From: an uncultured Porphyromonas sp.
Lineage (GTDB): Bacteria > Bacteroidota > Bacteroidia > Bacteroidales > Porphyromonadaceae
DNA: 64,000 nucleotides
Direction: 5' to 3' (one strand)
Assembly (NCBI RefSeq): GCF_900539765.1
Contig: NZ_UQDF01000002.1
A program made the translations under genes and the position numbers. A model generated the notes under the pieces. It ran no database searches. It saw only the letters and a program-made list of their open reading frames with translations, and was not told the DNA's origin. Positions 5,918-62,396 of the stretch are shown in pieces; position 1 is the first letter of the stretch; the number at the start of each line of letters is the position of its first letter.

Positions 5918-7870
5918 ATGTCTGATCAGATACATATCACGCTACCCGATGGCAGTGTGAAGGAAATGAAGCAGGGGGTGACCCCGCTAGATATAGCTAA
6001 TAGCATCAGCGAGCGACTGGCACAGGAGGTCCTAGCGGCCGAGTGCGACGGCGAGCTTATAGATATACGTACACCGCTGATGCAAGATGCCCACATCAAG
6101 CTCCTCAAGTGGGAGGACGAAGGCGGCAAGCACGCTTTTTGGCACACCTCGGCTCACCTTATGGCCGAGGCGCTTCAGGAGCTGTACCCTGGCGTACAGT
6201 TTGGCATAGGGCCTGCTATCGAGGCAGGCTTTTACTATGATATAGATGCTGGTAATGAGGTGATCAAGTCGGAGGATCTGCCGAAGATCGAGGCTAAGAT
6301 GCTGGAGCTGGCGCATCGCAAGGAGACGCTCGAGCGTAAGGCGATCTCTAAGAGCGATGCCTTGGACTTCTTCAAGAAAACGGGTCAGGGCTACAAGCTA
6401 GAGCTGATCAACGATCTGGAGGATGGCACCATCACGACCTATACGCAGGGTGCCTTCACGGATCTCTGTCGTGGACCACACCTTCCCTCCACAGCGCCTA
6501 TCAAGGCGGTCAAACTACTGAGCGTGGCTGGCGCTTACTGGCGTGGCGATGAGACGCGCAAGCAATTGACTCGTATATATGGTATCACCTTCCCCAAGAA
6601 GAAGCTCCTCGATGAGTATCTCGCTATGCTCGAAGAGGCGAAGAAGCGCGACCACCGCAAGATAGGTAAAGAGCTGGAGCTCTTTGCTTTTTCACAGCGT
6701 GTCGGGCAGGGTCTGCCTCTGTGGCTACCACGCGGTACGCAGCTGAGACTTAAGCTCGAAGACTTCCTCAAGCGTATCCAAAAGCGCTACGGCTATCAGC
6801 AGGTGATGACGCCTCACATCGGCAATGTGGAGCTCTACAAGACGAGCGGTCACTATGCTAAGTATGGTGCTGACTCATTTCAAGTAATCACGACTCCTCA
6901 GGAGGGGGAGGCTTTCATGCTGAAGCCGATGAACTGCCCTCACCACTGCGAGATATACAAGCTCAAACCACACTCTTACAGAGATCTGCCGGTACGTCTA
7001 GCTGAGTTTGGTACGGTCTATCGCTACGAGCAGAGCGGTGAGCTACACGGCTTGACGCGTGTACGTGGCTTCACGCAAGACGATGCACATATCTTCTGCC
7101 GTCCTGATCAGGTCAAGGAGGAGTTCCTTAAGGTGATGGATATTATCTTCATCATCTTTAGAGCTCTAGACTTTGAGAACTTTGAGGCGCAAATCTCTCT
7201 ACGCAGCCAGACTGATCGTAGCAAGTACATCGGTAGCGAGGAGAACTGGGATCGTGCTGAGCAAGCGATCATCGAGGCTTGCCAAGAGGCTGGTCTACCA
7301 GCACATATCGAGTACGATGAGGCTGCTTTCTACGGCCCGAAGCTTGACTTTATGGTCAAGGATGCTCTCGGTAGACGCTGGCAGCTGGGTACGATCCAGG
7401 TAGACTACAACCTGCCAGAGCGTTTTGATCTAGAGTACACAGGCGAGGACAATCAGAAGCACCGCCCTGTGATGATACACCGCGCACCCTTTGGCTCTAT
7501 GGAGCGATTTGTAGCGGTACTCATAGAGCACACGGCGGGTAAGTTCCCCCTATGGTTGGCTCCTGACCAAGTGGTCATACTGCCTGTCTCGGAGCGCTTC
7601 AACGACTACGCCAACGAGGTGGCAGCAGCCCTGAGCGAGCATGACATCAGCGTATCCGTTGACGACCGCAATGAGAAGGTGGGTCGCAAGATACGTGACA
7701 ATGAACTCAAGCGTATCCCCTACATGCTGATCGTCGGTGAGCAAGAGCAGGCTGACGGCACTGTATCGGTACGTAAGCAGGGCAAGGGTGATGCAGGTAC
7801 AGAAAAAATTAGTACCTTTGCCGAGCGTATCCTTCGAGAGATAGAGAGTCAGATGAATGCCAGAGGGTAG
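5918..7870 (+). CDS. thrS: threonine--tRNA ligase
   Basis: TGS/editing/class II catalytic/anticodon domains recognisable (..[11 protein letters not shown].., ..[10 protein letters not shown].., ..[10 protein letters not shown]..). Start set at [12 protein letters not shown] (residue 37 of supplied ORF). Confidence 0.9.
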
Positions 7871-17370: not shown

Positions 17371-17392
17371 GAGACTGTTGCCATAGTCTCAA
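17371..17392. repeat. short variant of the GAGACT..AGTCTC hairpin in the topA leader
   Basis: gagactgttgccatagtctc has the same stem and loop start (gagactgttg..) as the 31-bp hairpins at 42023, 59660 and 60692, with a shortened loop. Sits between a putative -7 box and the topA ATG. Confidence 0.35.
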
Positions 17393-17532: not shown

Positions 17533-17645
17533 CGTCTCGCTTTGATACAACGGACGCTCGACCGTGCGTCCCTGCACGTCGTTACTCGTCAGTACTCCAA
17601 GAGAAGGCGTCCATCAATCTAACAGTAGATCGACGGACGCCTTGT
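17533..17645. repeat. GCGTCC/GGACGC hairpin-pair repeat (family 3), locus C, inverted relative to loci A/B
   Basis: cgtctcgctttgatacaacggacgctcgaccgtgcgtccctgcacg is the reverse complement of the GCGTCCGTTGT(G/A)TCAAAGCGAGA motif plus the GTGCGTCCCT(A/G)CA motif. Second hairpin ggcgtccatcaatctaacagtagatcgacggacgcc. Confidence 0.45.
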
Positions 17646-20402: not shown

Positions 20403-20669
20403 GTGTAGTACTTTATAGATATTGTACCCTCCTCCCGTCAGCTGACAAAAGTCGAGTACTGTGATACAATTAGTTTTCTTCGACCTCAAAGTTACAAAGA
20501 ATATTCGTAATACCTACCACTAGGTAGAGAAAAAGATTGTTTTCCTGCCATATTCTCCGTAAAGAGGCTCTTTTGTAGACGAATAGGTCCTAAAAATGAG
20601 TAGAGACTGCCACTACTAGCGACAGTCTCTAGACGGATAGGTGCAATAAGATGCAGGTTACAGAGTCGA

Positions 20670-21068: not shown

Positions 21069-21252
21069 AATTATAAAGCTTAGAAGTTAGTATTGTTGGT
21101 TTGTTATCATTTCGCTCTCTTTAGATCTCTCGTTGAAGTCTCTCGTTGCTTCAACACCTTGTACCACAGAAGATGAAACAAGCAAGAAACAATCACCATA
21201 CCACAAAGATAGTTTTTTTTGCAAACAACAAAGCGCTTGATGGTAGACGAAA

Positions 21253-21281
21253 CGTCTAACCTCTAACTTCTAATCTCTAAT
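21253..21281. repeat. degenerate heptamer array (TCTAAYN)x4, reverse orientation of the RNTTAGA arrays
   Basis: cgtctaacctctaacttctaatctctaatcc, directly abutting CACGTG element copy 2. Confidence 0.55.
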
Positions 21282-21287
21282 CCGATC

Positions 21288-21452
21288 GTCACGTGGAAAA
21301 TCTCAAATCTCCACGTGGCGGTTTTTCATTTTCCACGTGGAGACGAAATGATTCCTCCGAAGTTTCATTTGATTCCTCCGAAGTTTTATTTCTCGCCTAC
21401 GTGGAGATTTTTTATTTGCCACGTGGCGATTTGAGAATTTCCACGTGGGGAT
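21288..21452 (-). repeat. CACGTG-box composite palindromic element, copy 2
   Basis: cgtcacgtggaaaatctcaaatctccacgtgg..ttccacgtggagacgaaatgattcctccgaagtttcatttgattcctccgaagtttt..cctacgtggag..gccacgtggcgatttgagaatttccacgtgggg. Central tandem in opposite orientation to copy 1. Confidence 0.75.
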
Positions 21453-40149: not shown

Positions 40150-40320
40150 CTCTCCACGTGAGGAATCACAAATCTTCACGTGGATATTTTTTATTCTCCA
40201 CGTAGGCGAGAAAGATTTCCTCCGAAGTTTCATTTGATTCCTCCGAAGTTTCATTTCTCGCCCACGTGGAGAATTTCTATTCTCTACGTGGATATCTCTA
40301 ATTTTCCACGTGGATATTGC
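40150..40320 (-). repeat. CACGTG-box composite palindromic element, copy 3
   Basis: ctccacgtgagg..cttcacgtggat..ctccacgtaggcgag..ttcctccgaagtttcatttgattcctccgaagtttcattt..cccacgtggag..ctacgtggat..tccacgtggatattg. About 215 bp upstream of gdhA. Confidence 0.75.
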
Positions 40321-41928: not shown

Positions 41929-42022
41929 AGCTTAGACCTTATTTGTTTGCCTTTTATAAGGGAGGGTCGCTATTCACTCAGCGTGAGTAGCGACCCTCTC
42001 TCTATCTTGTGTCTACGCTCTT

Positions 42023-42050
42023 GAGACTGTTGACTTTTGCGATAGTCTCC
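42023..42050. repeat. GAGACT-N15-AGTCTC conserved-loop hairpin, solitary copy between convergent gdhA and ung
   Basis: gagactgttgacttttgcgatagtctc. Same stem and loop (gttgacttttgc.a.ag) as the 59660 and 60692 copies. Confidence 0.55.
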
Positions 42051-42055
42051 TCTTA

Positions 42056-56658: not shown

Positions 56659-56917
56659 TCCCCCGTCCCGCTCCCCTTCAAGGTCCTTTTCCTGCTTCCC
56701 CTCAAGGTGCTTAGGATGCCAATCGAGAGCAAAGCCTAATTAATCGACTCTGCAAAGGTAATATAGGAGACTACAAAGCGTGAACTCTGATGCGCTGAGC
56801 GTCTCTCTGTAGTCTCCAAACGTCTCAACAGAGCGTAAAGGAGCGCGACACGACAAACGAGTCCTGTCAATCTTCTATATTATGCGCACCATCGCTGATG
56901 CGAGTCCGAGCTTGCTA

Positions 56918-57885
56918 CTACTCAGTAGCTCGTCCTAGTAACGTGTCTACATCCTTCTGGATATCGCGCAAGGCAGCCCACAGACGCTCTGGAACAATAG
57001 ATATGTCCCAATTCTTATCGGTGGCATCACCTAGATGGCCTCCCATCATGCAGCAGGCCTCCTCCTCTTGCTCAGCGGTGAAGAGATGGAGCTCGCCAGC
57101 AACTGATCCTCTTCGATCGGGCAGCCCGTCCACCAGCCTACGCGCTTGCTCGTTATCAAGAGCAGTCCCGTCGAAGCGGACGACACGTAGGTTAGGACAA
57201 TCCACAATCCAAATAGACCCCAACTTACTGTCTCTAGCATCCACCTCCTCCAAGGCTTCACAGCCACAGATGTCCAACTCTTCCAAAGTTTTGCTCGGAC
57301 AGTGCAGGCTCTTTAGCTGCTTACAGCTTTGCACCATGAGTCTACTGAGTGGGCTCTCAGGGAGCTTTAGCATCGCCAGCTCCTTGTTGCCACTGCAGAG
57401 TAACTCCCTTAGATCAGAGCAAGCTGTCAGATCCAAGCTAGTCAGCTGAGTGTCCATACAGTTAATCTCTTTTAGATTAACACAGTGCGACAGGTCTAGG
57501 CTGGTCAATTGGTTGTTATGACAATCTAGCTGTGTCAAGGCAGCATTCTTAGAGAGGTCCAAGCTCGTTAGCTTATTACCATGGCAATATAGCTTTTCAG
57601 GTTGACAGAGTGCGAGACATCCAGGCTTACGATACTATTGTCGCCATACGTGCCACAATTGAAGCTTGTCAGCTCCCCACGGATGACCACCTCCGAGGAG
57701 GTCAACGTGTAGTGATAATACACACCACCCGTCTTGGGAGACTCAGCAACGCCCTCAACGGTGACCTCCCCTACGGTCCTCAGTCCGAGGCAAAGTTTTC
57801 CTGAGCCTGTTGCATTATCCACGCTCAGCCGTATGATAGATTGCTCTGCTGCTTGAGAAGAGAGATTAGCGTCTTTAATATTCAT
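56918..57885 (-). pseudogene. leucine-rich-repeat protein disrupted by a frameshift (two ORFs 57568-57885 and 56918-57562)
   Basis: Upstream ORF ends ..SLDVSHSVNLKSYIAMVIS*. The adjacent frame continues the same LRR register (..GNKLTSLDLSKNAALTQLDCHNNQLTSLDLSHCVNLKEINC..). A single-nt indel near 57575-57590 would restore one ~320-aa LRR protein. The downstream ORF begins with a non-ATG start in the supplied track. Confidence 0.55.
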
Positions 57886-57917
57886 CTGTTTATTCCTCTA
57901 TTATGGTTTGTGCTTGT

Positions 57918-58901
57918 CTATAGCTTACGCCAGTGATCGATCATGGCGGTTAGGAACTTCTTGCGCTGAGGATCTGCAATACTTGCAAAGGGTGCAGCAC
58001 CGATGTCCTTTAGAGCTTTTGCAAACTGCTCATCAATCTTTTTTTCCCGGCTCTTATCTCCTTTTATAGGAGGCGTTGGTTTGACATGGTTAATGAGCAT
58101 CTTATACTCACCCTCGGTCAGCAGGAGTGAGAAGTTGCCACCTTCCAGCTTGCCCATCCACCATAGGTAAGCATCTAGTATGTCAAACTGTTGTAGACCA
58201 CAGAATAGAGCTGTAGATCCCTTGCCAAAGATCACCTCTCTCAGCTCATTGAGTGCTGAGATATACTCTCCGATGCTTCCGTATTCTAGCACCTGTTTTT
58301 GTTGGGGCTTTAGTCCCATAGCGCTCATCACCTTACGATATGACTCCCTAGCTAGTCTGTCATATATCGGGAAGCCGAGCGGGTATCTCTTCGTATCCAT
58401 CAGCATGCAGTAGTAGGCATACTTGCTAATGAGGGACTTGAGGGTGGCCCCTGGCGTCCCAATCTTCTGAATCCCATACGATGCCTCAAAGATATTCTTA
58501 CCTATGGTCGTTGGCTTACCTAGGTTTTGCAAAACGATGTCATAAAAGTAGTCATTGGGCAACTTTCCACTCTTACCAGCGAACTGCGTGGTCTCATGAA
58601 TAATCCTCTCCGCCAGCTGCTCCAGCGAGAAGTAACTATAGGCGGCATTCGTAGAGTAGTAAGAGTTGAGGACTACAAGACGCAGGAGTATATGCTCCTG
58701 AACATGACTATGACCCGGTCCCTGACCTTGATCTAGCCCCTGACCCTGTCCTTGAACTCCTTTTCCACTGAAGAGTCTCGATATGATCGCCCGCTGATTA
58801 TTGTACGGGAGACCTTTCGTATCGATCTTTCCTTTATTCGCTGTGATAGTCTGCGCTAGGAGCGTCATGACCTCTCTAATCTCTGAAGCAGTTATTGCCA
58901 T
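57918..58901 (-). CDS. hypothetical protein, 327 aa, no recognisable domain (orphan in a lower-GC islet)
   Basis: Coding-like ORF with a Gly/Gln-rich low-complexity linker (GKGVQGQGQGLDQGQGPGHSH). Local GC is lower than neighbouring housekeeping genes. Confidence 0.5.
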   Translation of the reverse strand: MAITASEIREVMTLLAQTITANKGKIDTKGLPYNNQRAIISRLFSGKGVQGQGQGLDQGQGPGHSHVQEHILLRLVVLNSYYSTNAAYSYFSLEQLAERIIHETTQFAGKSGKLPNDYFYDIVLQNLGKPTTIGKNIFEASYGIQKIGTPGATLKSLISKYAYYCMLMDTKRYPLGFPIYDRLARESYRKVMSAMGLKPQQKQVLEYGSIGEYISALNELREVIFGKGSTALFCGLQQFDILDAYLWWMGKLEGGNFSLLLTEGEYKMLINHVKPTPPIKGDKSREKKIDEQFAKALKDIGAAPFASIADPQRKKFLTAMIDHWRKL

Positions 58902-59040
58902 TTCGATTCTGTATTAAAGATGAATGTAATAGTGTCGTGTGGAGCGGCTAGCTTATGGGCATATCACTCTTCTTTGGGTGGGGTAGCCTCATGAGACACG
59001 CCCCCTAGTACGTGGACGGTCTCATGTGAGTCTCCTTTGC

Positions 59041-59505
59041 TTAACCATAAGAGTTTGCTGTTGCGTCTGAAGCCCTAGAGCCTCTCGGCGTCTGGAGGAT
59101 CTTGTCCGCCTTCTCCTTGTTCTCCAAGAGGTGGTCGACCAACTTCGATCCTAAGGTCTGGGTGTTCCAAGACTCATCATAAGGGAAGCCCATCTTATCT
59201 GAGATTATGCGGAGTTCCTCTTTGACATTCCCGTGCCCACACTCCTTGTAGATCTCGATCTGTTGGGTAGGTAGCCTTTTAACTACGAGATCTCCGAAGT
59301 GAGCCTCCTTGCCATCGCCAAACTCCTTAACGAGCCTGCGACCGAGGTCTCGCATATTCCACTTCTCATCTACGGGGAAGTCCTTCTCTTTTGCAATACC
59401 GCGCATAGTCTGGTAGAGGTTACTAGGTACGCACAAGACATCTACATGTCCATTGTCGGCGATCTCGATGATATACTCGCCTGCGATTACTGATTTTCTA
59501 GCCAT
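59041..59505 (-). CDS. hypothetical protein, 154 aa, with internal tandem duplication of a ~35-aa module
   Basis: IAKEKDFPVDEKWNMRDLGRRLVKEFG and ISDKMGFPYDESWNTQTLGSKLVDHLL align as a duplicated motif [IS]..K..FP.DE.WN...LG..LV. No known domain recognised. Confidence 0.5.
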   Translation of the reverse strand: MARKSVIAGEYIIEIADNGHVDVLCVPSNLYQTMRGIAKEKDFPVDEKWNMRDLGRRLVKEFGDGKEAHFGDLVVKRLPTQQIEIYKECGHGNVKEELRIISDKMGFPYDESWNTQTLGSKLVDHLLENKEKADKILQTPRGSRASDATANSYG

Positions 59506-59659
59506 TTGGTTTTAGTGTTATTAAGATGAATATTCATTGTTGATTAATCGGTAAGTCTTACTCCTATTATTATATATAGGAAAAAAGCACCGCTTATATA
59601 AGTCTCTCGGCACACGCTCCGCCTGCACTGATGCCCTCCTCGTATGAGGATACGACAAA

Positions 59660-59690
59660 GGGAGACTATTGCAAAAGTCAACAGTCTCCC
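59660..59690. repeat. GGGAGACT-N15-AGTCTCCC conserved-loop hairpin (left copy of an inverted pair)
   Basis: gggagactattgcaaaagtcaacagtctccc, followed by a second palindrome caatcttgcaagcaagattg. Confidence 0.6.
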
Positions 59691-59854
59691 AATCTTGCAA
59701 GCAAGATTGTCTAGACTTTGCAGAAAGGATGAAGCGCAAGACGCCGAGGGTGAGGTCTGAAGGGAACATACCTCCGTATGTGACCGAAGCCGAATCCCGA
59801 AAGCAACACAGCGATTCGCCTTTATGCAACAGTCCCAAAGGGGCTGGTGCGGAG

Positions 59855-59960
59855 CGAAGCTCGGCACAAGCGCATAGGGTGCGACCATCGGGGCGGACGC
59901 TTGTTGCGTCAGCCTGCGAGTCGTCTGATAAGAATGATGAACCGCCCCTGTACAGCCGCC
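59855..59960. repeat. family-3-like GC-rich hairpin repeat inside the gene-free region
   Basis: ggggcggacgcttgttgcgtcagcc .. ccgcccctgtacagcc shares the GGGCGGAC/GTCCGCCC and GGACGC..GCGTC motifs with loci at 4.1, 17.6 and 60.4 kb. Confidence 0.35.
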
Positions 59961-60275
59961 TAGAAGGCGCCCTGCGCGTTTTCGGGGGGGGATGGCAAAA
60001 CGCTCGCCGTCAGCGAGATGCGACGGCAGAGAGGCTCTGAAATGGCTCTACATCCATGTATAGACGTAGGGTGGAGAGGGTTGATTTCACCACAATGATA
60101 TGTAGTGAAGCAGTCTCTCTGAGACCTAGCGGTACTATAGTGATAAATAGTACCAGCTCTTTCGATACTATACGCAGTCAGAGCCATGTGGGCTGTCACT
60201 GTTTGTTACTTTTCTGTTGAGAGGGGGGCCTCTCGTAGGTAATGTTCTGCACAAAGATAAAACTTTATTTCAAGT

Positions 60276-60327
60276 CGTGCAAGAGAGGAGAGATTAGATG
60301 TTAGAGATTAGAAATTAGAGGTTAGAA
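60276..60327. repeat. degenerate heptamer tandem array (GANRTTA)x7
   Basis: gagattagatgttagagattagaaattagaggttagaagttagagcgag. Confidence 0.6.
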
Positions 60328-60384
60328 GTTAGAGCGAGACGTGTAGCCCGTATAGTGATGCACAGATAGTGTCTAGCGAGAGGA

Positions 60385-60545
60385 TGTCCGTTGCCGAACC
60401 ATCCAACGTGTAACGGGTGTAGGGACGCACGATCTGTGCGTCCGTTGTGTCAAAGCGAGATTGCGTCAAGTTTTGTATTCGTCCTGGCTGGTTCGAGAAC
60501 GGACGCACGAGCCGTGCGTCCCTACAACCGTTACACGTCTCACGA
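60385..60545. repeat. GCGTCC/GGACGC hairpin-pair repeat (family 3), locus B
   Basis: acgtgtaacgggtgtagggacgcacgatctgtgcgtccgttgtgtcaaagcgagattgcgtcaag..gaacggacgcacgagccgtgcgtccctacaaccgttacacgt. The two ~40-bp arms are inverted copies and each arm is itself a hairpin. Confidence 0.5.
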
Positions 60546-60559
60546 GGAAATCGGAAAGC

Positions 60560-60735
60560 TCCAGGGAGGAAACGGAATTTCCCCACGGAGGACCGAAATA
60601 AAAGTTCGGAAGAATGAAATGAAACTTCGGAAGAATGAAATCGAAGTTCCGAAGAATTTTTGCCTCCGTGGAGAGTCTCGCTTTCTTCCGTGGAGACTGT
60701 TGACTTTTGCAAGAGTCTCCCGTGGACAATTCTGA
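60560..60735 (+). repeat. CACGTG-box composite element, copy 4 (diverged: CCACGG/CCGTGG boxes, triple central unit)
   Basis: ..ccccacggagg..aaagttcggaagaatgaaatgaaacttcggaagaatgaaatcgaagttccgaagaat..cctccgtggagag..ttccgtggagactg..cccgtggac. Same architecture as copies 1-3 but with the G of CACGTG lost in the boxes and cggaAgaa instead of cggaGgaa. Confidence 0.55.
60692..60721. repeat. GGAGACT-N15-AGTCTCCC conserved-loop hairpin (right copy, inverted relative to 59660)
   Basis: ggagactgttgacttttgcaagagtctccc is nested between two CCGTGG boxes of element copy 4. The loop is the reverse complement of the 59660 loop. Confidence 0.6.
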
Positions 60736-60896
60736 TTTTCCTCGAGCTGTGGGGAGTTGATTTGCGGACAGGGTATAGGTACTTTCAGGCTATGGCAAAC
60801 AAAATGAGCGTGCTGACTGTACTTAGTCAACACGCTCACGGTTGGGGTGTAGTGTGAGGGGCGATGGGCCACTACACTATTCCTTATAACGAGTGC

Positions 60897-62396
60897 TTAC
60901 TCAAAGGGGAAGGTCTTGATGAGCTCCTCTGCCTTGTTCATCTGCTCGTACATGACGACGTCATCCTCGACGCGAGGACATACCTTGCGGAAACTAGCGA
61001 GGAAGCCCTCGAGACGCTCCGAGGTCTTCATAGGACGACGGAATTCGATCGCCTGAGCTGCATTGAGTAGCTCGATCCCGAAGAGACGATAGAGGTTCGC
61101 GATGAGTGGCATAAGCTTGGTTGCCGCGTTGGCACCCATAGAGACGTGATCCTCCTGCCCATTGCTGGAGACGATGCTATCGCTAGCTGCTGAGTGGCAG
61201 TACATCTTATTTTGGCTGACCATAGCGGCAGCAGCATACTGCGGGATCATGAAGCCACTGTTGAGTCCAGGGTTGGCAACGAGGAACTCAGGCAGGTCGC
61301 GTAGACCAAGGATGAGCTGAGCGACACGACGCTCTGAGATATTGCCTAGCTCAGCGAGTGCTATAGCGAGGAAGTCGTAGACGATCGCTAGAGGCTGGCC
61401 ATGGAAGTTACCACCTGATACGACCATATCGTCATCGGGGAAGACGGTGGGATTGTCCGTAACAGAGTTGATCTCAGTCTCTACTACACTGCGCACGTAA
61501 GCGATAGCGTCACGCGAAGCTCCGTGAACCTGTGGCACACAGCGGAAGCTGTATGGGTCCTGTACCTGGGGCTTGGGCTTAGCAATCATCTCGCTGCCCT
61601 TGAGTAGCTCACGCATATGGGCTGCGACCTGTATCTGTCCCTGGTGTGGACGTATCTGATGCAGACGATCATCGTAGGGAGCGTCTAGTCCAGCGAACGC
61701 CTCTAGTGAGAGTGCTGCGCACCAGTCAGCGGCTAGCTTGAGGCGCTCTGCCTGTATGAGGGCATAGACACCATGTGAACTCATAAACTGAGTACCATTG
61801 AGCAGGGCTAGACCCTCTTTGCTCTTGAGCTTGATGGGCTCCCAGCCAAACTTAGCGAGGACCTCGCAGGAGGGAAGCTTTTCACCCTTGTAGCGTACCT
61901 CGCCGTAACCGATGAGCGGTAGGAAGAGGTTAGCTAGAGGAGCTAAGTCACCTGAAGCACCTAGCGAACCGCGGTCATAGACGATGGGTAGGACATCCGC
62001 ATTGAGCATATCAACGATGCGCTGTACGGTCTCTACCTGTACACCACTATTGCCGATCTGCAGGGCATGAGCCTTTAGAAGGAGCATAAGGCGAACGATG
62101 GGCTCTGCGACCTCGTCACCACAGCTACAAGCGTGGCTCTTGACAATGTTTTCCTGAAGCTTGGTGAGCTGATCAGGAGAGATGGTGCGGTTGCAGAGTG
62201 AGCCAAAGCCCGTGGTAACACCGTAGATAGGCTTGTCGACCTCCTCGACCTTGCGGTCTAGGTAGTTACGACAATGCTCGATACGCTTGACAGCCTCTGG
62301 TGAGAGGGTTAGCTCGAAGTGGTTTTCTAGATACTCTCGGCATAGCTCGATGGTGAGCTGCTCGCTACCGATGGCGAATGATTTGCGTGCTGACAT
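60897..62396 (-). CDS. hutH: histidine ammonia-lyase
   Basis: MIO-forming ..GSLGASGDLAPL.. motif and aromatic ammonia-lyase family along the full length. 499 aa. Confidence 0.9.
   Translation of the reverse strand: MSARKSFAIGSEQLTIELCREYLENHFELTLSPEAVKRIEHCRNYLDRKVEEVDKPIYGVTTGFGSLCNRTISPDQLTKLQENIVKSHACSCGDEVAEPIVRLMLLLKAHALQIGNSGVQVETVQRIVDMLNADVLPIVYDRGSLGASGDLAPLANLFLPLIGYGEVRYKGEKLPSCEVLAKFGWEPIKLKSKEGLALLNGTQFMSSHGVYALIQAERLKLAADWCAALSLEAFAGLDAPYDDRLHQIRPHQGQIQVAAHMRELLKGSEMIAKPKPQVQDPYSFRCVPQVHGASRDAIAYVRSVVETEINSVTDNPTVFPDDDMVVSGGNFHGQPLAIVYDFLAIALAELGNISERRVAQLILGLRDLPEFLVANPGLNSGFMIPQYAAAAMVSQNKMYCHSAASDSIVSSNGQEDHVSMGANAATKLMPLIANLYRLFGIELLNAAQAIEFRRPMKTSERLEGFLASFRKVCPRVEDDVVMYEQMNKAEELIKTFPFE

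Follow-up and report, generated by a model that had tools for sequence, protein, structure and literature searches.

Does the pair of inverted hairpins found beside hutH in an uncultured Porphyromonas sp. delimit a piece of DNA that flips or moves as a unit, or do the hairpins have separate origins? The question arises from a stretch of 64,000 nucleotides (contig NZ_UQDF01000002.1 of assembly GCF_900539765.1, hereafter the window), in which a sequence-only reading had noticed a 31-bp hairpin with a conserved loop at 59660-59690, an inverted copy about 1 kb away and a gene-free, repeat-dense span between them, and had proposed an invertible or non-autonomous mobile cassette or, as another option, a family of terminators. 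[quoted passage not shown]

The inverted hairpins and their separate target duplications

The inverted pair itself is real. The 31-mer GGGAGACTATTGCAAAAGTCAACAGTCTCCC at 59660-59690 (plus strand) has an inverted copy with 2 mismatches at 60691-60721 (minus strand), a partner of which none was expected in 100 shuffles. A search with the 29-nt core returned the third copy that had been placed between ung and gdhA (42022-42050, minus strand); the hairpin of 27-31 nt occurs three times in the window as compared with 0 expected by chance, and the looser pattern GAGACT-N8-22-AGTCTC occurs five times (0.19 expected), including 17371-17390 and 20603-20629. The family consensus is GAGACTGTTG-CAAAAGT-CAACAGTCTC, from which each of the three window copies departs by 1-2 substitutions. 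The true repeat unit is 27 nt long (59662-59688, 60693-60719 and 42023-42049), and the apparent length of 31 nt is explained because the outer G/C pairs come from the flanking target duplications. The conservation of the loop was borne out. The hairpin does not stand as a free 31-bp unit, since the copy at 59660 represents the first 27 nt of a 175-bp element. The features that carry the argument are the following.

59662-59836, plus strand: full-length 175-bp MITE, identical to the consensus at 167/175 positions; its first 27 nt (59662-59688) are the hairpin
59657-59661: left target-site duplication of this MITE, AAAGG, by direct reading
59837-59841: right target-site duplication of this MITE, AAAGG, by direct reading
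60693-60719, minus strand: solo 27-mer, taken as a collapsed MITE remnant, within another dispersed repeat
60688-60692: inner copy of its duplication, CCGTG, by direct reading
60720-60724: outer copy of CCGTG; homology to strains without a 3.87-kb segment, described below, begins at 60725
42023-42049, minus strand: solo 27-mer between ung and gdhA, with CTCTT at 42018-42022 and 42050-42054

Perfect duplications are present at all three window copies (AAAGG, CCGTG and CTCTT), and none flanks the span 59660-60721 as a whole. The borders of the long copy were also marked by BLAST, as the coverage by ~70 homologous copies ends at both sides of 59662-59836. In its native setting the 60693 solo was found in three metagenome contigs, L137, L138 and L139 (L-numbers designate the loci and contigs that were compared with the window). 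L139 carries this solo, and its 59662 site is apparently empty (TACGAC-GAGGG-GGGCTTG, where the window reads TACGAC-AAAGG-MITE-AAAGG-GGCTGG); therefore, the 59662 and 60693 elements appear to be independent insertions. Among copies of the repeat that hosts the 60693 solo, a search for the empty site returned one match across the junction, a weak one (72%), and a metagenome scan for the collapsed form predicted at 59662 found none.

A composite or non-autonomous cassette was rejected as a candidate: its outer flanks differ (AAAGG vs CCGTG), the interior 59842-60280 has no other copy and L139 apparently contains one end alone.

It is highly improbable that the pair delimits a switch flipped by a site-specific recombinase or by homologous recombination. 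The two arms, 30 nt long with 97% complementarity and 1002 nt apart, would be suited to it; the structure of the locus differs between strains, and flipped loops show that short inverted repeats recombine within the hairpins of this family. Inversion predicts a junction of the form AAAGG-27mer-CACGGAAGAAAGCG. However, five assemblies chosen by an identical HutH or 154-aa protein (L114, L124, L125, L127 and L128) are collinear with the window across the whole interval at 99.3-100% identity, the differences between strains being limited to a single additional 21-nt unit and a G-tract whose length varies. L139 contains nearly the whole interval in the same orientation; in L137 and L138, the coverage of which stops at ~59984, the junction at the 60693 end is the native one. 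Furthermore, the arms carry separate target duplications, one of them apparently occurs without the other in L139, and the span contains no recognised gene or promoter-like element. No inverted 59.8-60.7 kb span was detected among the assemblies compared, from which a rare minority orientation could escape, and the neighbours (hutH, FTCD_C, hutI, the four small genes, recG and ispD) include no recombinase domain. With a separate duplication at each hairpin, a single-copy interior, the arrangement in L139, collinear assemblies and no recombinase, the proposal that 59660-60721 is an invertible or mobile unit does not hold. The 59662 and 60693 copies would accordingly lie inverted to each other by coincidence, as independent insertions into a spacer that also contains three other small repeat families.

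A MITE family with IS5-type ends

A family scan with the query GAGACTNTNGCAAAAGTCAACAGTCTC against one genome per species returned more than 113 stretches of DNA. Nearly all of the stretches listed belong to "Bacteroidales bacterium KA00251", to Porphyromonas uenonis or to genomes of uncultured Porphyromonas from its clade, and every genome contributes 14-21 MITE/hairpin loci as a minimum. Two classes of copies were distinguished by their flanks, one in which the 27-mer runs into a conserved body (n = 74), which begins directly after it (ACAATCTTGCNNGCAAGATTGTC...CGCCTTTATGCAACAGTCTC), and one in which the 27-mer stands alone (n = 47). The length is exactly 175 bp in 44 of the 47 complete long copies. 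In an alignment of 57 copies each position is conserved at ~90% or more, two dinucleotides excepted, and conservation falls to background precisely at GAGACT... and ...GTCTC.

The element ends in terminal inverted repeats (left GAGACTGTTGCA, right TGCAACAGTCTC) that are complementary at 12/12 positions and at ~15/18 over 18 nt. ISPg4, an insertion sequence (IS) of the IS5 family in P. gingivalis, has the ends GAGACTGTTGCA and CGCAACAGTCTC, and MITEPgRS of the same species has GAGACTGTTGCA and TGCAACGGTCTC (Table 2 in Klein 2015, PMC4596501). Compared over these published 12-nt repeats of another species, the left end of the 175-bp MITE is identical to both and its right end agrees with that of ISPg4 at 11/12 positions. 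The 27-mer is composed of the same left end (positions 1-12, 12/12) abutted to a 10-mer that resembles the right end (positions 18-27). Made of two abutted IS5-type terminal inverted repeats, the hairpin most likely represents a conserved sequence that a transposase recognises. The suggestion of a protein recognition site thus keeps its transposase half, consistent with the abutted ends, the duplications and the filled and empty sites described next, and loses the recombinase switch.

Perfect 5-bp duplications flank 29/47 long copies and 16/41 solos, and 7 further solos have duplications with one mismatch. When pooled, they were found at 45/107 elements and at 0/321 controls, in which the right-hand pentamer was read at displaced positions; A+T makes up 70% of the duplicated sites, which follow an AWNWT-like pattern. 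Insertion was also evidenced by pairs of filled and empty sites. L102 is filled and L058 empty at one site, with the converse at a second site nearby; L061 is filled where L084 and L030 are empty; and L105 has a solo with the duplication CTGTT where the window reads a single CTGTT at ~56835. The site of the 42023 solo is empty in L108, L133, L135 and L134, the last three of which encode an identical Ung protein; L134 (CP002689) is presumably P. asaccharolytica DSM 20707, which also identifies the species of the window. This site is polymorphic (solo/empty) within one species, and the long form was observed in 0 of 24 contigs. A variant of 1.7 units occurs at two P. uenonis loci, with an ATTAA duplication at one of them. 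Small and non-coding, with terminal inverted repeats, duplications of fixed length and many dispersed copies at filled and empty sites, the element is a MITE and has each of the defining features of one, except for a cognate IS, of which none was detected in the window or in ~1.3 Mb of loci.

Further insertion polymorphism within the species was noted at the site orthologous to window ~56690, where L115-L117 and L119 (~6849-7037), which lack the 3.87-kb segment described below, carry a complete MITE between hutH and recG, duplicating CTTTA, and the window has none. The sole open frame of the MITE matches 113 short hypothetical proteins (37-98 aa) devoid of Pfam domains, such as HMPREF1869_00100 and PORUE0001_0271, which are gene-caller artefacts.

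Only two dinucleotides of the MITE vary within the family, one at positions 38-39 (59699-59700 in the window) and one at 51-52 (59712-59713). In hairpin 2 the loop reads TT/AA, TC/GA or CT/AG, i.e., pairs of reverse complements, which suggests loop flipping; at positions 51-52 TA and CT are equally frequent, and in L008 and L110 the 27-mer loop is flipped relative to the body. Divergent subfamilies are represented by L051 (a 408-bp contig labelled Streptomyces sp. P17, of low coverage and probably a contaminant) and by protein P0111 of Porphyromonas levii. In L051 the 27-mer and the right end are identical, the body is roughly two-thirds identical by eye, and a hairpin is kept through changes on both sides (CATAC/GTATG to TTTAC/GTAAA). 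A single full-length MITE without a clean duplication lies in another genus, in Hallella bergensis DSM 17361 (L053, 635-809), and may reflect horizontal transfer of a larger region.

The strong predicted fold raises the idea that the 175-nt element is a multi-copy gene for a structured non-coding RNA, to which the hairpin retained in L051 would also lend itself. This is very unlikely: no Rfam match was obtained even at E<=1, and the terminal repeats, the duplications and the random orientation relative to genes fit mobility at the DNA level. The copies, being at least 90% identical, are too alike for a covariation test.

Somewhat less remote, and still unlikely, is a reading in which the hairpin spread without transposition, as a conserved attenuator or intrinsic terminator or as a structural repeat of the repetitive extragenic palindromic (REP) type. 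The stem is stable (10 to 12 pairs), a terminator-like score was obtained for the copy read as 59690-59660 on the minus strand when followed by its T-rich duplication, the predicted folding energy of the entire MITE is -73 kcal/mol (z = -5.5), and the flanking gene ends are more often 3' (82) than 5' (48). Against this, the element itself has no T-run, hutH has a strong terminator-like hairpin of its own, and the copies occur in convergent (27), tandem (28) and divergent (10) gaps, so that they are not exclusive to convergent 3' ends, as a plain terminator family had been expected to be. In addition, insertion is evident from the duplications and the empty sites; REP elements do not give rise to it. 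Effects of the hairpin on transcripts, if any, would be secondary.

Proposed transposition in trans and probable collapse to 27-nt remnants

According to the history proposed here, the MITE would be moved in trans, most likely by the DDE transposase of an ISPg4/ISPg1-like element of the IS5 family, the staggered cuts of which at AT-rich, AWNWT-like sites would generate the 5-bp target duplications. We infer an enzyme of this kind solely because the terminal repeats match. The MITE at 59662-59836 would be one such insertion, and the solos at 60693-60719 and 42023-42049 would be what is left of further insertions of this MITE. They may have been reduced to the 27-nt hairpin, with the original duplication kept, when replication slippage or hairpin-aided recombination deleted the DNA between the internal direct repeats.

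The origin of solos by in-situ collapse of the long MITE is the favoured interpretation, in part directly seen and in part deduced. The longest direct repeat in the MITE is the 10-nt CAACAGTCTC, which occupies positions 18-27 and 166-175; a deletion that joins the two copies yields a product of exactly 27 nt. L090 (species UMGS907) and L002 (species UMGS107) share one orthologous site, its left flank and ATTAC duplication included, and it is occupied by the long form in L090 and by the solo in L002. Other collapsed forms were found as well, namely the 20-nt GAGACTGTTGCAACAGTCTC in L084 (flanks CTAAC/CTAAT), GTGACTTTTGCAACAGTCTC in L086 (flanks ATGAG/ATGAG), GAGACTGTTGCAAAAGTCTC in L034 and L020, and a 26-mer in L074. 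Intact duplications are less frequent around solos than around long copies (39% vs 62%), as expected if the solos are older.

The competing explanation is that the 27-mer is itself mobile, a "nano-MITE" of two abutted terminal repeats that inserts directly, the 175-bp form being its derivative or sibling. Solos and long copies share the same type of 5-bp duplication, solos amount to ~1/3 of all copies, the 27-mer holds the left repeat (12/12) plus the right-end-like 10-mer, and the site at 42023 is solo/empty within one species, with no long form found there in the 24 contigs. Nonetheless we regard it as improbable, though less so than the terminator, mainly because a 27-bp duplex would be unable to bend and bring its own ends into synapsis, as deduced from known DDE synaptic complexes. 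Moreover, the 27-mer equals the deletion product of the longest direct repeat, one site has long and solo forms with the same duplication, and the relics of other lengths (20 and 26 nt) with duplications fit deletion better than a single defined unit. Were a transposase to have integrated the 27-nt hairpin itself, with IS5-type ends 3 nt apart, an event judged to have only a slim chance, this hairpin would be the smallest transposable DNA unit known in bacteria, and its movement might involve a pre-cleaved fragment, or a single strand that snaps back, and not a looped synaptic complex.

Several observations weigh against transposition followed by collapse. A perfect duplication is missing in ~40% of the copies, and to the left of the empty site in L139 homology can be recognised over only ~20 bp. 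Collapse depends on one same-site pair of long and solo forms, and this pair is between species; within P. asaccharolytica solo/empty and long/empty sites were observed, and no site was long/solo. Neither the window nor ~1.3 Mb of loci yielded a transposase with matching ends, the protein search with the MITE open frame returned only the short hypothetical frames, and 5 bp is not the duplication length that textbooks give for most IS5 subgroups; IS1126/ISPg1 reportedly makes duplications of 5 bp. The searches for a partner were as follows: wherever two terminal repeats lie 0.4-3 kb apart, in any of the loci, the genes between them are ordinary ones, clustering of open reading frames (ORFs) across the loci revealed no multi-copy proteins, phmmer with the E. 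coli IS5 protein InsH found no match among 2260 ORFs of the loci, and BLAST of the MITE against plasmids gave none.

The spacer, its strain variants and known relatives

The spacer that received the 59662 and 60693 insertions is 1.39 kb long and lies between a gene for a 154-aa protein (59041-59505, minus strand) and hutH (60897-62396, minus strand). The absence of a credible gene from the span was corroborated, as it contains short ORFs only; Pfam matched none of them, nor the 223-aa ORF called in L128. The spacer has no tRNA or tmRNA gene, and Rfam gave no match at gathering score in the whole window or at E<=1 in 59400-61000. A map of interior copies, made by BLAST of 59400-61000 against 113 related loci, showed that 59842-60280 is unique and that 60280-60692 is a patchwork of three other dispersed repeat families, with the solo 27-mer (60693-60719) at its edge. 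The span had been described as repeat-dense, which is true of about half of it, and the heptamer array and hairpin pair reported inside it are present, as are 21-nt repeats. The segment at 59.8-60.7 kb is a collection of small repeats plus unique DNA, not one element. The other features of this region, and two short hairpins elsewhere in the window, are:

59842-60280: unique non-coding stretch outside the repeat families, with no copy in the 113 loci; it holds a G8 tract
60289-60330: array of TTAGAGR heptamers, a different dispersed family, identified by repeat search and BLAST
60336-60541: inverted-repeat element of ~200 bp, ends GAGACGTGTA...TACACGTCTC, with GTAGGGACGCACG hairpins; also at 17535-17589
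60586-60648: 21-nt minisatellite, the third dispersed family, with one extra unit in L127
60804-60839, minus strand: terminator-like hairpin of hutH, T-run included, which in the sense of transcription lies upstream of the solo 27-mer
17371-17390: 20-nt relic GAGACTGTTGCCATAGTCTC, with 2 differences from the GAGACTGTTGCAACAGTCTC form of L084 and no duplication
20603-20629: GAGACTGCCACTACTAGCGACAGTCTC, with the same 7-nt ends as the 27-mer family, an unrelated loop and no duplication

The relic at 17371-17390 corresponds to the shortened variant that had been recognised near 17371, and the hairpin at 20603-20629 is either an old relic or a chance match.

The unique stretch is G+C-rich in part and had no match by BLAST against phages. 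Its G8 tract (59985-59992) is 3-5 nt longer in other strains and is a point at which several assemblies break; the 223-aa frame of L128 consists of ORFs fused by the longer tract. The tract might be phase-variable or merely a run prone to slippage.

The three patchwork families recur in the window near 1530, 17535, 21250-21450 and 40195-40312. TTAGAGR arrays are found at 1530-1576 and 21251-21280 and in loci L005, L021, L099 and L113; the element that contains them ends like CAGGGCTGACGCATTATAAT, and its AT-rich tip was repeatedly targeted by the 175-bp MITE and the 27-mer (e.g., L012, L068, L087, L095 and L103). The ~200-bp element has internal GGACGCACG-NNNN-CGTGCGTCC hairpins and represents a further small family with GAGAC-type ends. 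Units related to the 21-nt repeat are found at 21351-21447 and at 40195-40312, and the loci contain them in up to ~50 places.

Porphyromonas asaccharolytica is an anaerobe of the gut and urogenital tract, and its strains vary at this locus. Strains with identical HutH differ downstream of hutH, where they show the window layout, hutH directly joined to recG, or unrelated neighbours. The hutH-recG strains lack 56857-60724 (3.87 kb), homology resuming at 60725, just outside the duplication of the solo. In L126 the four-gene module follows groEL, which is joined to the 154-aa gene by a chimeric MITE with unmatched flanks (ATTCA vs CCTTT), within which single-nucleotide polymorphisms switch parent midway. 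This junction is the product of recombination between two MITE copies, and at the hut locus the breakpoints of recombination between strains do include MITE copies. The notion of a plastic region related to mobile elements was correct at this level, borne out by the strain rearrangements and the recombination in L126.

The 3.87-kb segment, found in some but not all P. asaccharolytica strains that share an identical HutH, comprises the repeat-rich spacer and four small genes, all on the minus strand (59041-59505, 57918-58901, 57568-57885 and 56918-57562); the strains without it carry a 28-bp filler in its place. The four genes have no family match, and PADLOC and NCBIfam gave nothing useful for them.

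These results remove a false lead, as there is no switch or cassette at 59.7-60.7 kb, and define a high-copy MITE in P. asaccharolytica and P. uenonis. It breaks assemblies, has been annotated as more than 100 different "hypothetical proteins" and marks strain-level rearrangements beside the hut operon. Its 27-nt remnants provide a natural record of MITE decay via deletion between internal direct repeats, and its consensus may be used for repeat masking and for strain typing by insertion site. A literature search on MITEs and IS elements of P. asaccharolytica and on the terminal-repeat sequence returned P. gingivalis papers only, and the MITE of P. asaccharolytica and P. uenonis has apparently not been described so far.

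Among known systems, the 27-mer resembles REP sequences and bacterial interspersed mosaic elements (BIMEs) in being a short, conserved hairpin of ~30 nt, dispersed and intergenic. It differs from them in its 5-bp duplications and IS5-type ends, since REPs have no duplication and are tied to a RAYT (HUH) transposase gene; an identity with REP/BIME was rejected on account of the duplications present at 27-mer and MITE copies.

Transposon Tn10 offers a parallel for the collapse. Its "nearly precise excision" remnant, said to have been described by Foster et al. in 1981, reportedly arises, as solo long terminal repeats do, by deletion between short internal direct repeats that leaves a small palindromic remnant and keeps the duplication. 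Here, unlike in Tn10, the repeat is 10 nt long, the remnant 27 nt, and the starting element a MITE and not a composite transposon; collapse is also frequent, with ~1 remnant per 2 full copies.

The Correia elements (CREE) and the ATR MITEs of Neisseria, related to ISNme1/IS1301, are likewise MITEs of roughly 100-160 bp with terminal repeats; they lie near genes and fold into hairpins in transcripts, with functional effects documented there. They belong to a different phylum and have a different duplication, which in the Correia element is TA. The ISNme1 repeat GAGACCTTTGCAAAA resembles the end of the 175-bp MITE (PMC4596501).

The closest relatives are the MITEs of P. gingivalis (MITEPgRS/MITE464 and BrickBuilt), with ISPg1 and ISPg4 of the IS5 family as partners (Naito 2008, PMC2575886; Klein 2015, PMC4596501). 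In common with these, the 175-bp MITE is found in the genus Porphyromonas, is non-coding and intergenic, is present in ~10-20 or more copies per genome, has ends starting GAGAC(T/C)...TTGCA, is associated with strain rearrangements and often lies beside minisatellites. In contrast to them, it belongs to the asaccharolytica/uenonis clade, its body has no tandem-repeat core, and its left end is a complete 27-nt hairpin. The abundance of collapsed 27-nt remnants flanked by target duplications is the unusual feature that sets this MITE apart.

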